This document shows, piece by piece, positions 1 to 18,470 of a stretch of 64,000 bases of DNA. How positions within the stretch are numbered: position 1 is the first letter of the stretch; the number at the start of each line of letters is the position of its first letter. This DNA comes from Octopus vulgaris. Its lineage: Eukaryota. The position numbers were made by a program, and so were the translations under genes. The notes beneath the pieces are model-generated. The model searched no databases, was not told the DNA's origin, and worked only from the letters and a program-made list of their open reading frames with translations. The stretch lies in contig OX597827.1 of NCBI GenBank assembly GCA_951406725.2, positions 79,236,001-79,300,000 on the forward strand, read 5' to 3'.

Positions 1-295
1 CCTTGTTGTATGTACACAGAGACTCAGCATCCAGTGTTTGAGTAGTGTATAGTTTTCCTGAGTTGGTGACATTAAATAAGTGAGAACCACTCTCGACTGT
101 CCTTTGTAGTTGTGTAAATGTAATGAGAGTGTGTTGTTGATGTGTGAGAGGGTGTGATAAGTTGGAGTCAACAGCAATGTCTCCTATATAGGTGTGAGGT
201 CTGCCTTCTTCCTTGACATGGTATGTAATATCTATGGACAGTACAAGGGTGATCAGTAAATGTAGAAGACACAGTAGACCAATATATGCTGTCAT
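1..295 (-). CDS. Pcdh: Protocadherin gene A, 5' part of large exon (signal peptide + most of EC1); runs off window start
   Basis: ATG at 295 (plus-strand cat 293-295); nearly identical to MTAYIGLLCLLHLL...LDAESLCTYNK of the seven paralogs with a complete large exon. Confidence 0.93.
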   Translation of the reverse strand, partial: MTAYIGLLCLLHLLITLVLSIDITYHVKEEGRPHTYIGDIAVDSNLSHPLTHQQHTLITFTQLQRTVESGSHLFNVTNSGKLYTTQTLDAESLCTYNK

Positions 296-333
296 GTCTG
301 GAATTCTTCATCACATTTCAGCAGGAGAAATTG
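292..333 (-). other. 3' half of spliced uORF ([13 protein letters not shown]); stop overlaps the Pcdh A ATG
   Basis: TTTTGTAG acceptor (AG at 334-335), then 13 codons + TGA overlapping ATG (ACATGA). Confidence 0.6.
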
Positions 334-410
334 CTACAAAAAAAAAAAAAAGCAGTATTGAAAGTAAAATAACTTATAGAAATAATAAGAGACACATGAA
401 TGTTATACAC

Positions 411-2145: not shown

Positions 2146-2544
2146 CATTCTTAGTTTATCATAATTACAAAGAAGTATATAAAAGATATTTAACAGAGTA
2201 CACAAACACTATATATATAGGCATATCAGTGATCTGTTAAAGTTCATAAAAGGTACAGAAGGATTCAGATTAAATTTATGAGTTATTACAACAACACGTA
2301 TAAACTATATTGATATACATTAACACTCAGTCTTATCGGCTATAAATCAATATTTTCTGACAGTGAAACAAATATACATACACCTGGTGTGGACTACATC
2401 AGACCAATATTATATACAAAATGTATCATAGTAATATATATATAGTTTAATATCTCTTGTATAATGTTGTCTTGTGTGAGTCTGAGATTACAAAATGTAG
2501 TCAAGTTCTAAATAATTGTATTACAATGTCTACTGCAGTTGTGT

Positions 2545-3135
2545 TGTTAATGGTGGAAGTCATGGCTAGATCTCTCGATCCTCCACTGTCCCAGTCCCTG
2601 TATATATACAACATGGCAGACATTTTAGATATTATCCTTACCCTGTCTTTCATTAGAAACACAAATAATATAAATGTTATAATGAATATGAAAAGATAAT
2701 AAAGAGAGAGAGAGAGGGAGAGAGAGAGACTTACCTGCATTGTTTAATCCTTCACTGTAGTTGTGTGTGATGGATGATGTGTATCCTGCTGTAGTGTTCC
2801 ACTCCAACTGCTGCTGCTGCTGTAGTGGTATTATAGTGGTACTGCTGCTGTTGTAGTAGTGTTCCTGTGTTACTGCTGCTGCTGCTGCTGTTCCTGTGTA
2901 ACTGCTGATATAATAGTGTGACAGTTGCTGTATGTAGTGGGAGGTGAGATGTTAGCCAGATGCTGGTGTGTGCTAGTTACAACTCTATGTCCTCCACACA
3001 CACATACACAATTGTGTGTATGATGAACAAAGAAAAAAGCTATCAGCCTCACTTTCAATATTGAAAGAAATATAGAAAATCTCTCTCATCCAATAGGAAA
3101 TTACTGCAATGATGTCTGTGTCACACAAACACATC
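2545..3135 (-). promoter_or_regulatory. Conserved promoter + mainly non-coding first exon (donor after 2735) + conserved intron-1 head, gene A
   Basis: Near-identical block in 8 copies; CCAAT 3090-3094, palindrome 3052-3067, (GT)n, CAG-rich exon with no ATG until the terminal ATG CAG|GTAAGT (2740-2735). Confidence 0.72.
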
Positions 3136-4006
3136 AAGAGAAATCACTTTACACTGTAGTGGATTGACAGTTTACATATCATAATATTACTACTTAAATA
3201 TTTAGTGTTAGAAAATTATAAATTTGTAGAAAAAATACAAACTTTATTATTAACTACTTATATAATTTTACACCTTTTTTCAGAAAGATGTAAATTTTAG
3301 TAGAGACAGTTAAACTTTTATCATTTCAAAAGTTTATTTTAAGTTTAAATAAAACCAGTTTTAATTGTGGAAATGAAAATTTATCCAAATTAATTACTTT
3401 GAAAGCAAAAATGAACATTCCGGAAATATTTAAATTTATCTTCAATATTTTGACTTCATAAAAGATGAAACTATTCAATTTTAAAATTTAACAAAAATTC
3501 CAAATTGATTAGGCGTTGGTGGTATGCTATCTTTACTTTTAAAGGTGAGCTATTTACGCCTTCAAGAAATATCCATCTATAAGGATGGTAATTAGTAAAA
3601 GTATTTCTAGAGGTTATACAGAAAGGAAATGCTAAGAGAAAAGTTGTAAATAAAAGTAAAACAGCAGAAGATACATGTTAGAATTGGTGTTAAACTAAAA
3701 GATGCTACAATTAGACATTCGAGGATGACTCAGATAAAGCTATCTATGTTTAGTGAAATGCCTATACCAAAATGAAAGTAAAAAAATTATTTTATAATAA
3801 TGTAGTATGGTAATGTAGAGTAAGGTGTTTGTAATATTTACTAAATCAAAGACGTAAATTAGGGGTCATAATAAATGCCACTGTAAGGCCCTTTATGTGT
3901 GTGATGGGTGAAAGAGACATAGAGTTGATATTTTTATATGAATATAAAGTATTGTATAAGATTTGGTGTGTGAGAGAATCATTTAACAATAGTCATGGAA
4001 CATCTA

Positions 4007-4086
4007 CTATGTTGGCTGTAGATAGGTATCTTGTATTTGTTGTCCCTTTAGTATTGTGGCTGCAACTGGATTGTCATTGGTATATT
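4007..4086 (-). CDS. Pcdh: Pcdh B terminal coding exon, (E)YTNDNPVAATILKGQQIQDTYLQPT*
   Basis: TTTTGCAG acceptor; phase 1 matches the upstream donor; TAG TAG stop; paralogs differ by synonymous GTT/GTG. Confidence 0.85.
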
Positions 4087-4578: not shown

Positions 4579-6977
4579 CTGAGGCACAGGTGGAAGTCTC
4601 CTTTGTGTTGTTGAGAATTTCCACTCATCTGGTGTCTGTTCCATCTCCAGAAAAAACTGACTTTTAGATTTTATTGTCTGAAGATTTCGGTTAAATATCT
4701 CTTCTGCATTTCTCGTTATTGCAACAGGATTGTTAGTCTGATACAGTAATTGTCTCATCTCAGTCTGAGAGAGAAAGTTGGGATTCTCTGCTGTTGTGGG
4801 TGAGTTATTTGTGTGATTAATACATCTGAAAACACACAGTGTTATGGACACTACAATAGCCACAGACAGTATTACAGCTGCTGCTACAATGATAATTACC
4901 CAAGTCATATTCAGGTCGTGACCAGACTGGAATGGCACAGCAGTCAACATTGGAGATGTATCATTACTAACAAACAGTGTTAGTATGATAGCAGTTGTTG
5001 CTGATTGAACTGGAGTACCACCGTCTTTCACTATAAACTGCAGCTCATATGTTCCTGCATCATTTTGGTAAACTGTGCGAGAGAAAGATAACACACCAGT
5101 GTGTGAGTTCACTGTAAACAGGTTTTTATCATTGGATCTCAGTATTCCATATGTGAGGAAAGCATTGTTTCCAGTGTCTTTGTCAGATGCTCTCAGAATT
5201 GTGATGTCCTTCTTACTGTGTGGATGGTAGTGGACATCGAGATTGTAAGGGTCATTATTAGGAAACGTAAAATACGGAGCATTATCATTTTTATCTAGAA
5301 TCTCAATAACAATATTGGCAGTGTCATTGAGAGAAGGTGTTCCATTGTCTTTCACTAAAACCTTGAACTTATAGATGTCTTTCATTTCTCGATCTATTGG
5401 TTGTGATGTAGAAATGAATCCATATTTTGTCAGTTGGAAAGGAATGTTATCATTGTTGTTATCATTGATGATAGAATATGTAAGTTGGCCTCCATCTCCA
5501 AGATCAGGGTCTGTAGCATTGATGAAGCCAATAGGGAAGTCAACTTTCTGGTTTTCATAGGTGAGGAATTGGAATGTCTCTTTGGTAAAATGTGGTTCTA
5601 CATCATTGACATCAGTTACTTTGACAGAGAAATATTTTTTACTTTCTAGTTGAGGTGACCCCATGTCATGACACAGAATAGATACTTTATAGTGGTCCCT
5701 TATTTCTCTGTCAAGATGGCCCTTAACAATCATTTTATATTCTTTAGAATCTATTTTGGCAAGTTTAAACTTATCATGTTTTAAATCACAGATAACCTCA
5801 CCATTAGGTCCACTATCATTGTCAGTGACCATAACATAAGCTATAAAACTATCTACTTCACTGTCTTCTGAAACTGCTGCTGAGCTCTCTGATAAAGGAG
5901 ATACAAAATCTATGTTAATCAATGGAGCACTATTCTGGTTATTAATAATGTGAATCTGAACTTTGGTTACAGAACTTAAGGGTGGACTCCTTCATCCTGT
6001 GCTTCAATAAATAATTTATATGATTGCTTTTTACTAAACTGAAAATTATCATGTAAAAATAAATCTCCAGTTTCCTTATTCAATACAAAATATTTCTGGA
6101 TATTTCGAGATGTTTTATGGTTGAAATGGTAAGAAATCTTTCCATTTTGTCCAGAATCTTGATCTGAGGCTTTTAAAGTAAGAATTGGTAAATGTCTTTG
6201 ATGTGAATTATTTATAGAGATGTTGTAGAGTTTCTGAGAAAATACAGGTGTGTTATCATTGACATCTATAACAGATATGTGTACCTTGAGTGTAGCTGTT
6301 TTGGGAGGATTCCCTCCATCTTTAGCTTCCAAGGTCAATATATATTTGTCTTTGAGTTCCCTGTCTAATTTATCTTCCAATATTAATTCAGGTATGGAGA
6401 CACCATCATGTCTTTTTTTGATTGAGAGAGAAAATGGTTCTCTTTTACTTTTCTTGATCATATAAGTAATTTGAGAATTCTTTATTGAAATATCTTCATC
6501 AATGGCATTTGGAAGAGGAATTTTAGTACCTTTAAGGTCTCTCTCCAAAAATTGAATTGGAATTTCATTCTTTGGAAATTTTGGTGAATGGTCATTGACA
6601 TCTTCTATGAATATTTTAATTTTAAGTATTTTCATAAACGTTTTTCCTTTCCTCACTGCTACTTTCACTGTTCTGGAACATTCCTTGTTGTATGTACACA
6701 GAGACTCAGCATCCAGTGTTTGAGTAGTGTATAGTTTTCCTGAGTTGGTGACATTAAATAAGTGAGAACCACTCTCGACTGTCCTTTGTAGTTGTGTAAA
6801 TGTAATGAGAGTGTGTTGTTGATGTGTGAGAGGGTGTGATAAGTTGGAGTCAACAGCAATGTCTCCTATATAGGTGTGAGGTCTGCCTTCTTCCTTGACA
6901 TGGTATGTAATATCTATGGACAGTACAAGGGTGATCAGTAAATGTAGAAGACACAGTAGACCAATATATGCTGTCAT
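4579..6977 (-). CDS. Pcdh: Pcdh B large exon (6 EC + TM) with 1-bp deletion frameshift near 5989
   Basis: Two ORFs (5976-6977, 4555-5922) join into the paralog protein; 2399 nt versus 2400 in paralogs; donor CAG|GTAAAT after PPVPQ. Confidence 0.9.
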
Positions 6978-7156: not shown

Positions 7157-8375
7157 CATCATCATCATCATCATCATCGTTTAGCGTCCGTTTTCCATGC
7201 TAGCATGGGTTGGACGGTTCTACTGGGGTCTGTGAAGCCAGAAGGCTTCATCAGGCCCAGTCAAATCTGGCAGTGTTTCTATGGCTGGATGCCCTTCCTA
7301 ACGCCAACCACTCCGTGAGTGTAGTGGGTGCTTTTTACGTGCCACCCGCACTGGTGCCAGACAGAGCTGGCACACGGCCACAAACGGATGGTGCTTTTTA
7401 TGTGCCACCGGCACGAGGGCCAGGCGAGGCTGGCAACGGACACGAAACGGGGCGGTGCTGGCAACGGTCGCGAAACGGAAAGTTCTCTTACATGCCACCG
7501 GCACTGGTAACACATCTGCAATTTCCATTGATCGATTTCCATTGATCGATTTCGATTCTGATCCTCACTTGCCTCAACGGGTCTTAACAAGCAGAGTTTC
7601 GACATGCCACCGGCACTGGTAGCACATCCGCAATTTCCATTGATCGATTTCGATTCTGATCCTCACTTGCCTCAACACGTCTTCACAAGTAGAGTTTTGT
7701 GTCCCAAGAAGGGAAGGTATGCATACGTAGGCTGGCTCCATCCCATGTAGAAGGCCACGGGTTATGGACTCACTTGTCCTGCCGGGTCTTCTCGCGCACA
7801 GCACACTTCCAGAGGTCTCGGTCTCTAGTCATTTCCTCAGTGAGACCTAAAGTTCGAAGGTCGTGCTTCACCACCTCGTCCCAGGTTTTCCTGGGTCTGC
7901 CTCTTCCACAGGTTCCCTCAACCGCTAGGGTGTGGCACTTTTTCACACAACTATCTTCATCCATTCTCGCCACATGACCATACCAGCGCAAACGTCTCTC
8001 TTGCACACCACAACTGATGCTTCTTAGGTCCAGCTTTTCTCTCAAGGTACTTACACTCTGCTGAGTGTGAGTACCGGCATTACACATCCATTGGAGCATA
8101 CTGGCTTCATTTCTAGCGAGCTTACGCATATCCTCAGCAGTCACGGCCCATGTTTCACTGCCATGTAGCATGGCTGTTCGTACACACGCATCATACAGTC
8201 TGCCTTTCACTCTGTGCGAGAGGCCTTTTGTCACCAGCAGAGGTAAGAGCTCTCTGAACTTTGCCCAAGCTATTCTTACTCTAGCAGTTACACTTTCAGC
8301 ACACCCGCCCCCGCTGCTGACTTGGTCACCTAGGTAACGGAAACTATCAACTATTTCTAGTTTTTCTCCCTGGAA
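7157..8375 (-). mobile_element. 5'-truncated RTE-clade LINE (RT C-terminus, 3'UTR, (GAT)n tail), young
   Basis: ORF 7770-8384 with FRYLG, RRLRWYGHVARM, GRPRKTW; GC-rich; atgt on both flanks (7153-7156, 8376-8379); empty site in gene F intron at 40998-41001. Confidence 0.88.
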
Positions 8376-8487
8376 ATGTGACAATCATTAATGGGTAGAC
8401 TTATCTCTACAGAATAAAACAGCCTGAATTGAATTGTCAACATGTCTCATTATTTATCATTCAGATATACTTCATATACTTCATATA

Positions 8488-8963: not shown

Positions 8964-9249
8964 CAAATTGAGATAGGGGTTGTAAATGCAACCCACCATG
9001 GGATACCATATATCCAATATACTGCTATATTTGTATTTATGTGTACTTATATTTATGTTCTATTATACGTATTCTACTTATTGTATAATATTACTATTTT
9101 ATGTACACTCCTTCATGTACACTGCTTTACCCTGCATTATTATGTTTAACCTTATAGTTTCTTATGTGGTGGTTTAATAAAGTATGTGATTGAGTATTAT
9201 CTGATAATTGATATTTGATTTCGATGTATTTCTCCATTTTCTTATTTTG

Positions 9250-9540
<291 letters not shown>

Positions 9541-9609
9541 GTTGAATTGATAAAAGGTGTTTTTTTCTAATTTACATACATGCATACATACATACATACA
9601 TACATATAT

Positions 9610-9895
9610 AAAGCACCATTCAAGTGTGGTCATTGCCAGTGCCGCCAGACTGGCACATATGCTGGTGGCATGTAAAAAGCACCATTTGAGTGTGGGCGAT
9701 GCCAGAACCACATGATTGGCCCATGTTGGTGGCACATAAAAAGTACCCTCTACACTCTCAGAGTGGTTGGCGTTAGGAAGGGCATCCAGCTATAGAAACC
9801 TTGCCAGATCAGATTAGAGCCTGGTGTAGCCATCTGGTTTGCCAGTACTCAGTCAAACCATCCAAGCCATGCCAGCATGGACAATGGACATTAAA
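9610..9895 (+). mobile_element. SINE / RTE-tail-related repeat
   Basis: gagtggttggcgttaggaagggcatccagc core shared with the RTE 3'UTR at 7157-7330. Confidence 0.75.
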
Positions 9896-17225: not shown

Positions 17226-17729
17226 TCCACCATCTCATCACCTTCATAGTAGTTTTTATACTGAATTCTCAATATGTCTCATTATTTATCTTTCAGACTA
17301 ACTCATTTAAAGACAATATTATGTGTCACTATGCGAAAGCAATGTTTCGATGATTCAGTGCTCATCTGACTCTGATAAGTACTGAACAAATAGTTTTAGT
17401 TGTATTGAGATATACAGTCTCACCAAAATATTGGTCGGGACAGATGCAGTACATTGTTTAAATGAAACACTAAGTATTTTAAAATTTAGTACAATTAAAC
17501 ACCTATGAATTAATTGACCATATAAAGTGTGTGTGTATTTACACACACACACACACACACATTATATATATTAAAAATTGTAGCTAAAAGATTACACTTG
17601 AAAGTAAGAGCAATCTCTAGCTCTGTATTGTGTTCATAACCAGGATACCTAACTCCCCAATGGCCAGTGTAACTGGCTATAAACAGGTACCAAATTAGCA
17701 ATGGGGTGGTGGGGTGGTGGTGTATGCTC

Positions 17730-18470
17730 TGAAAGTATTGTTTTTAGAATACAAATAGGATGGAGAAATTTCAGAGAGCTATTACCTCTGTGGGCAACAA
17801 AAGGACTCTCTTTTAGCTTGAAAGGTAGATTGTATGATGCATGTATATGAATAGCTATACTCCATGGCAGTGAGACATGGGCTCTGAATGCAGAGGACAC
17901 TTGTAGACTAGAGAGGAACAACAGTGGTATGCTCCACTGGATATGCAGTGTCAATGTGCATGGATGATAAAGCGCAAATGTGTTGAGAGAAGAGTTGGGT
18001 ATAAAAGGAATCAAATGCAGCATGCAAGAGAGAAGACTATGATGGTTTGGACGTGTGATGTGTATGAATGAAAACAGTTGTATAAAGAAGTGTCTGCCAC
18101 TGAAAGTGGATGGTGTCTGTGGAAAAGGGAGACCCAGGAAGACATGGGATGAAATGGTGAGAACTGATCTCAGGATGTGTTGCCTCACAGAGGAAATGAC
18201 ACTGGATTGTAAAGTGATTGGCATTTGGAAGGGCATCCTGTTGTAAAATACCATGCCAAAACTGACCTCATCTGTGCAAGTGTCACATAAAAAGTACTCA
18301 GCCCACTCTATGGAGTGGTTGGTGTTAGGAAGGGCATCCAGCTGTAAAAACCATGCCAAACACACTTAGAAGCATGGTGCAGGCTCCCACCTGGACAACT
18401 CCTGTCAAACTGTCCACCCCATGCCAGCATGGAAGGGGGATGTTAAACGATGATGATGATGATGATGATG
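17730..18470 (+). mobile_element. Older degraded RTE-clade LINE 3' fragment with (GAT)n tail
   Basis: Homologous to 7770-8384 (GRLYDAC, LHGSETW, GRPRKTWDE) with in-frame stops. Confidence 0.85.

Follow-up and report, generated by a model that had tools for sequence, protein, structure and literature searches.

The window (the whole stretch of octopus DNA analysed, 64 kb) is a head-to-tail array of protocadherin (Pcdh) genes on the minus strand, in which cadherin domains were found, and each of its units carries a near-identical block of ~595 bp that is probably the promoter and non-coding first exon of the downstream Pcdh gene, together with the start of its first intron. As read from the DNA itself, the block is a candidate for the promoter and first exon of one octopus Pcdh subfamily; it has apparently not been described before, and the identity of its copies appears to have an ordinary cause. 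The window contains the starts of eight ATG-bearing large exons and the ends of eight last exons. A gene is made up of one exon of 2.4 kb, one of 145 nt and a last one in which 80 bases are coding. The encoded juxtamembrane region matches named proteins of Octopus sinensis and O. vulgaris at 100% identity and the closest Argonauta hians group at 81 to 86%. Intron 2 is strongly diverged among copies and ranges in length from 184 to 379 bp.

The block is present once in every unit, eight blocks to eight ATG-bearing exons, with exactly eight in-register copies and none off register in the 64 kb (Table 1). The copies are paralogs that are ~99% identical, and the eight therefore amount to one observation. 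The first-pass annotation of this DNA had described a promoter-like cassette at 2980 to 3135, in front of every gene and in eight copies with a sharp upstream boundary. Conservation of the cassette was borne out, its palindromes and CCAAT matching exactly in all eight units, but its end at 2980 was not, since conservation continues to 2543 and the 156 bp become ~595 bp. One cassette per unit was likewise found throughout, but it lies 1923 to 6020 bp before the downstream ATG, with an intron between. At the upstream edge, mean pairwise identity (ungapped) was 1.0 for the 10 nt starting from 3135 and, moving outward, fell to 0.74, 0.61, 0.57 and 0.41, which is indeed a sharp edge with a short taper; the downstream edge is abrupt, conservation ending at 2543. 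The distance back to the previous stop codon, given earlier as ~0.6 to 0.9 kb of diverged spacer, was measured at 561 to 870 bp, with ~20% substitution in the spacer.

Table 1. Features of the first block copy and its surroundings, in window positions
Feature	Position	Strand	Remarks
Whole homogenised block, copy 1 of 8, ~595 bp	2543..3137	-	putative promoter, first exon and intron 1 start
Other seven block copies	starts 12999, 21898, 27613, 36868, 44345, 53293, 61306		
Third, imperfect inverted repeat at upstream edge	3110..3136		predicted hairpin in 7/8; absent from the first-pass annotation
Putative proximal promoter (earlier cassette)	3006..3137	-	T-rich; 0.8% substitution among copies
CCAAT pentamer, reverse to the genes	3090..3094	+	possible NF-Y site
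Perfect 16-bp palindrome	3052..3067		invariant in 8/8
Second palindrome, 12 bp here	3006..3017		perfect 16-mer in 7/8 copies
(GT)n tract, 14-22 nt	2992..3005	-	lengths not multiples of 3
CAG-rich putative non-coding first exon, ~257 nt	2735..2991	-	45% GC; 5' end inferred
Weak CTCF-like 12-mer, 2 mismatches	2955..2966	-	overlaps an E-box; outside putative promoter 3006-3137; chance level
Donor A, perfect consensus	2729..2737	-	intron from 2734; top-scoring in 8/8 intervals
Donor B, alternative, 93 nt beyond donor A	2636..2644	-	in-phase ATG precedes
Conserved segment after donor B, 99 nt	2543..2641	-	41% GC; possible acceptor before 2597
Acceptor and 38-nt leader of downstream Pcdh exon	292..345	-	first base 333, ATG at 295
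Last coding exon of upstream Pcdh gene	4007..4086	-	stop at 4009-4007

Base composition changes along the block. GC climbs from 0.20-0.29 to 0.34-0.46 over the putative promoter and exon, T drops to 0.15-0.17 in the exon, and the switch from T-rich to T-poor sequence falls directly after the (GT)n tract. Such a change is expected of a promoter followed by a first exon. CpG is absent from seven of the eight cassettes and occurs only once or twice in a whole block, and no canonical TATA box was seen by eye in the putative proximal promoter at 3006 to 3137.

The short motifs reported earlier inside the cassette were recovered where they had been placed. The perfect 16-bp palindrome, CTTTCAATATTGAAAG, occurs exactly eight times in the 64 kb, first at 3052, and the second palindrome, ACACAATTGTGT, occurs eight times, first at 3006, joined as claimed to a (GT)n tract of variable length; it is mostly a CA/GT microsatellite junction. 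In 20,000 dinucleotide shuffles of copy 1, a 16-bp palindrome arose by chance with P = 0.0026, and one accompanied by a second palindrome of at least 12 bp with P = 5e-5. Elsewhere in the window, seven other palindromes of at least 16 bp were present after simple-repeat filtering. By resemblance, the candidates in the palindromes are a PRDM1/IRF-like half site, Sox-like half sites and an E-box. CCAAT was confirmed at its position in all eight units, and the pentamer as such is at chance level (151 in the window on both strands, or ~0.37 per 156 bp). The extended NF-Y consensus fits around it with 2 mismatches and has 232 matches in the window versus 349 expected. As an NF-Y site, CCAAT at 3090 to 3094 would presumably place the start near 2990 to 3030, given the usual spacing. 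A conserved 12-bp TA palindrome at 2599 to 2610 is a possible second or antisense start.

Splice signals also speak for a first exon. All eight genes have a conserved, T-rich acceptor 38 nt ahead of the ATG, so an upstream exon is required. The best donor in every one of the eight stop-to-acceptor intervals (2.7 to 6.5 kb; scored with a donor matrix) is donor A, at the end of the CAG-rich exon and at a nearly constant distance from CCAAT (359 to 370 bp). Intron 1 from this donor would span 1481 to 5574 bases. Within the shortest intron 1, only 2 of 127 windows were common to at least six of the seven other copies, and both are TA microsatellite, which leaves no rival conserved exon. The CAG-rich exon has a single ATG, 6 nt before donor A, a scarcity that is not significant (1 observed versus 2.4 expected). 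Of its frames, the one that stays open as far as the donor carries a stop in two of the eight copies and a frameshift in one, and another is intact in 7/8. One-base indels occur in the exon in copies 4 and 5; they are weak evidence against coding, because one-base frameshifts, possibly assembly errors, also occur in two of the seven complete large exons. The two genes concerned (starting at 6977 and 48369) are either pseudogenes or affected by such errors.

Joining donor A to the acceptor would create an upstream open reading frame (uORF) of 15 codons at the splice junction (2740-2735 plus 333-292, minus strand). It is open in all eight copies, the exon-2 leader supplying 13 of its codons and the stop, and the stop overlaps the Pcdh ATG. 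Donors A and B are each accompanied by a phase-0 ATG, and both lead into one leader frame. In the 39 bases of the exon-2 part, six of eight distinct substitutions are synonymous (P 0.001 to 0.01), compared with 2/7 and 1/7 in the other two frames; the test is post hoc and small, with eight changes of which three fall in one codon. The predicted overlap of a uORF with the Pcdh start codon is an unexpected feature. Splicing of donor A to the AG before 2597 would make the exon-like conserved bases after donor B (2641-2543, minus strand) a possible early-terminating decoy exon. Neither recursive splicing nor a 5-nt microexon at donor B found support. In sum, the obligatory upstream exon, the best donor, the junction uORF, the composition switch and a separate end of the upstream gene, described below, are indirect sequence evidence for the promoter-like location proposed in the first-pass annotation; the analogy with the vertebrate conserved sequence element (CSE) finds no support in the motifs.

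The near-identity of the copies had been taken as a special mark of the cassette, and this did not hold. Substitution among copies is 0.6 to 0.8% in the block, 2.5% in the segment with the CT tract and ~20% in the flanks. Third codon positions of the genes differ by 0.6 to 5.7% outside codons 101-350 and by 13 to 27% inside them, and intron 3 differs by 1.9%. Flanks diverged by ~20% and EC2-3 third positions by 13 to 27% indicate that the duplicates are not recent, and the block copies are evidently older than their identity suggests. Because the same identity is found in third codon positions and in a short intron, gene conversion, rather than selection on binding sites, accounts for it, and the palindromes and CCAAT therefore cannot be singled out as functional. 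All four gametes were found at five of six pairs of informative sites in the block, from only four sites of which one is in the CAG tract. The conserved edges mark a functional tract, and invariance within it says nothing about which motifs matter. Gene conversion has already been proposed for coleoid Pcdh arrays (PMC9068888 and PMC6339937, in part). The pattern is like concerted evolution of other tandem paralogs in its homogenised functional tracts, sharp edges and diverged spacers, but differs in that the octopus tract spans a putative promoter and first exon, which the available portions of PMC9068888 and PMC6339937 do not report. Codons 101-350, approximately EC2-3, escape homogenisation, with a minimum pairwise divergence of 10%. 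Intron 3 at 4248-4087 (162 to 164 bp, 23% GC) is 98% identical among copies, possibly by conversion carry-over or as an RNA-editing structure.

The cassette had been put forward as a candidate analogue of the vertebrate CSE. That element sits ~200 bp before the ATG, contains a CGCT box and is bound by CTCF in a methylation-controlled manner (PMC7811963 and PMC4978886, in part). At the motif level the analogy failed. There is no CGCT box on either strand in any of the eight blocks and almost no CpG, and the first-pass remark that no convincing CTCF motif was present is upheld by 12 CTCF-like matches in the window versus 13.5 expected, counted with a consensus and not a weight matrix. Judged by its motifs, the block is not a CSE. 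It is like the CSE in that every tandem Pcdh unit has one such conserved element upstream, and unlike it in its length of ~595 bp, in its variable distance of 1.9 to 6.0 kb before the ATG across an intron, and in having no CGCT and almost no CpG. As in vertebrate clustered Pcdhs, EC2-3 diverge and other parts are homogenised (PMC4978886, in part), but the octopus genes are complete and have no shared constant exons (PMC9068888, in part).

An addition to the promoter reading is that the cassette works as a CSE analogue all the same, as a docking site for looping or insulation, with promoters that compete for a shared enhancer and are thereby chosen stochastically. We regard this as doubtful. 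Every gene of the head-to-tail array has one equivalent element, and EC2-3 escape homogenisation as in vertebrate clustered Pcdhs (PMC4978886, in part), which implies that isoform identity matters. A review anticipates comparable processes in cephalopods (PMC10658181, in part), CTCF-like motifs mark squid TAD borders (PMC9023564, in part), and the CGCT box is missing from some vertebrate Pcdh promoters (PMC4978886, in part). Against the analogue, the CGCT box is lacking, seven of the eight cassettes offer no CpG for a methylation switch, the CTCF-like match is at chance level, neither an enhancer nor an antisense promoter was identified, and gene conversion alone explains the identity. Octopus neurons are described as each expressing ~21 of 172 PCDH genes, with both ubiquitous and cell-type-enriched members (PMC9712504, in part); as given there, this count does not decide between co-expression and noise. 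Stochastic promoter competition in the octopus array is plausible as a hypothesis. A bolder and somewhat less likely proposal is a Pcdh barcode independent of CTCF and methylation, in which promoters equalised by conversion would fire stochastically or compete through a palindrome-binding factor, EC2-3 would supply the diversity, and the uORF, with its second donor and possible early-terminating exon, would set a threshold for protein from each paralog.

Two other systems invite comparison. Xenopus pcdh-gamma2 15-36 carry a non-CSE motif that, like the octopus block, is similarly placed and common to a CSE-less tandem Pcdh subfamily, and the CGCT-less alpha promoters of zebrafish and Xenopus can be grouped with it as a likeness (PMC4978886, in part); the Xenopus motif, however, is short, vertebrate and ~200 bp from the ATG, and the comparison is one of description. 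Chelicerate sDscam is likewise an invertebrate tandem array of recognition molecules with a promoter per unit (PMC4835542, in part), but it encodes Ig proteins and its 5' cassettes splice to shared constant exons. Its alternative promoters were tested by reporter assay, whereas the octopus promoter is predicted from sequence, and the word 'CTCF' is absent from the main text of that paper as far as available (PMC4835542).

The chief rival to a promoter and first exon is that the block belongs to the 3' end of the upstream gene, as a long 3' UTR, an alternative tail exon or a read-through link, with cleavage after the ATTAAA near 2745 or with exon 3 spliced to the AG at 2928. We consider this improbable, though several observations fit it. 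The block is nearer to the upstream stop (561 to 870 bp) than to the next ATG; ATTAAA stands just before donor A in all eight copies and is followed by a pyrimidine-rich tract, as at a poly(A) site; and a candidate AG before 2927, which has a branch-like motif, opens a frame that is in phase with exon 3 and intact in 7/8 copies. Read-through Pcdh transcripts have been reported in O. vulgaris (PMC9712504, in part), and the cassette folds well as minus-strand RNA, which a DNA promoter would not need. On the other hand, this reading leaves the downstream acceptor without a donor, and a perfect donor at the exon end is unexpected for a terminal exon. The candidate AG before 2927 is preceded by only 4 T in 17, compared with 6 to 14 in 24 known acceptors, and a tail-exon peptide was found in none of 45 homologs, none of which aligned to the block better than E 7.6. 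All eight spacers already hold AATAAA or ATTAAA ahead of the block (in AT-rich DNA, at positions that are not conserved), and 3' UTR identity decays past about 100 nt. The C-terminus encoded by the exon at 4086-4007 is the protein end in 22 of the 23 closest homologs (Octopus, Argonauta), and by this comparison the upstream gene finishes before the block, at a conserved stop of its own. Searches for a coding tail exon were weak negatives: two translated frames gave no protein match, where a 90% cluster may hide an isoform, and a 205-aa open frame across the block had no match in the 50% library. Correlations of flank similarity were uninformative about which gene the block belongs to, with rho 0.05 between spacer and intron start, rho 0.26 (p 0.26) between intron start and downstream EC2-3, and rho 0.50 (p 0.02) between spacer and upstream EC2-3.

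Less likely still is a separate small unit among the Pcdh genes, a structured RNA or micropeptide gene whose exon 1 would be joined past 2597. With donor A joined to the AG that precedes 2597, there is a frame of 18 codons, open in 8/8 copies and stopping at the downstream conservation edge, but both substitutions in it are non-synonymous, and an ATTAAA follows it in just six of the eight copies, at unconserved positions. The minus-strand fold of the cassette has z-scores of -2.4 to -4.4, against a background in which 4 of 115 windows reach -3 or lower, but the whole block has a z-score of only -1.1. In Rfam no family reached the gathering score in the 64 kb, the eight weak hits being at chance level and far under threshold, and the Pcdh acceptor would still need a donor. 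Such a unit can coexist with a promoter and first exon as an early-terminating isoform. A C-box-like heptamer on the plus strand was set aside, as no D box accompanied it by eye. Palindromes and microsatellites are common in mobile DNA, but we give almost no credence to the block being a MITE or SINE, a dispersed repeat without function that tandem duplication has multiplied, since there are exactly eight in-register copies and none off register in the 64 kb, no terminal inverted repeat links the ends of the block among the 25 longest of 83 pairs, and passively carried DNA of the same units is ~20% diverged.

With the block read as promoter and first exon, we propose that transcription would start at or shortly past the second palindrome and the GT tract, at ~3030 to 2990, driven by a TATA-less, CpG-free proximal promoter of ~130 bp (3137-3006). 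A non-coding exon of ~257 nt would then be joined, by way of donor A (2735) or donor B (2642), over an intron of 1.5 to 5.6 kb to the acceptor 38 nt before the Pcdh ATG, and the uORF made at the junction, its stop overlapping the start codon, would probably damp translation. Repeated gene conversion or unequal exchange keeps the block, EC1 and EC4-to-tail near-identical while EC2-3 and the spacers diverge. Since transcription factors could not distinguish paralogs with near-identical promoters, co-regulation in the same cell types would be the default, and paralogs would differ only through their diverged introns and spacers, their position or noise.

Our literature search found no description of cephalopod Pcdh promoters or uORFs, though supplements may yet describe the exon. 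A promoter description is absent from the available portions of PMC9795677, PMC10658181 and PMC13218726, and one supplement of PMC9068888, as far as available, makes no mention of it. The 2023 review expects vertebrate-like processes and notes no functional cohesin data for spiralians (PMC10658181, in part). Coleoids have 150 to 290 whole-gene protocadherins to regulate, and the block is a concrete promoter and first-exon candidate that shows where to test how octopus neurons choose recognition genes. It lies 2 to 6 kb from the ATG, where a search limited to just upstream of the start codon would miss the promoter. Near-identical promoters predict co-expression or stochastic choice, never factor-specific control, and identity among Pcdh paralogs is no footprint of function. 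Short reads cannot place the block region on one paralog.

The variable first introns contain long open frames unrelated to Pcdh, for example at 7770-8384, 9127-9789 and 17649-18365. These had no Pfam match and, by resemblance, are presumably mobile-element fragments. Two public gene models (P0004 and P0018) merge exon 3 of the upstream gene with the next gene or duplicate exon 3, and show that annotation in the Pcdh array is unreliable.
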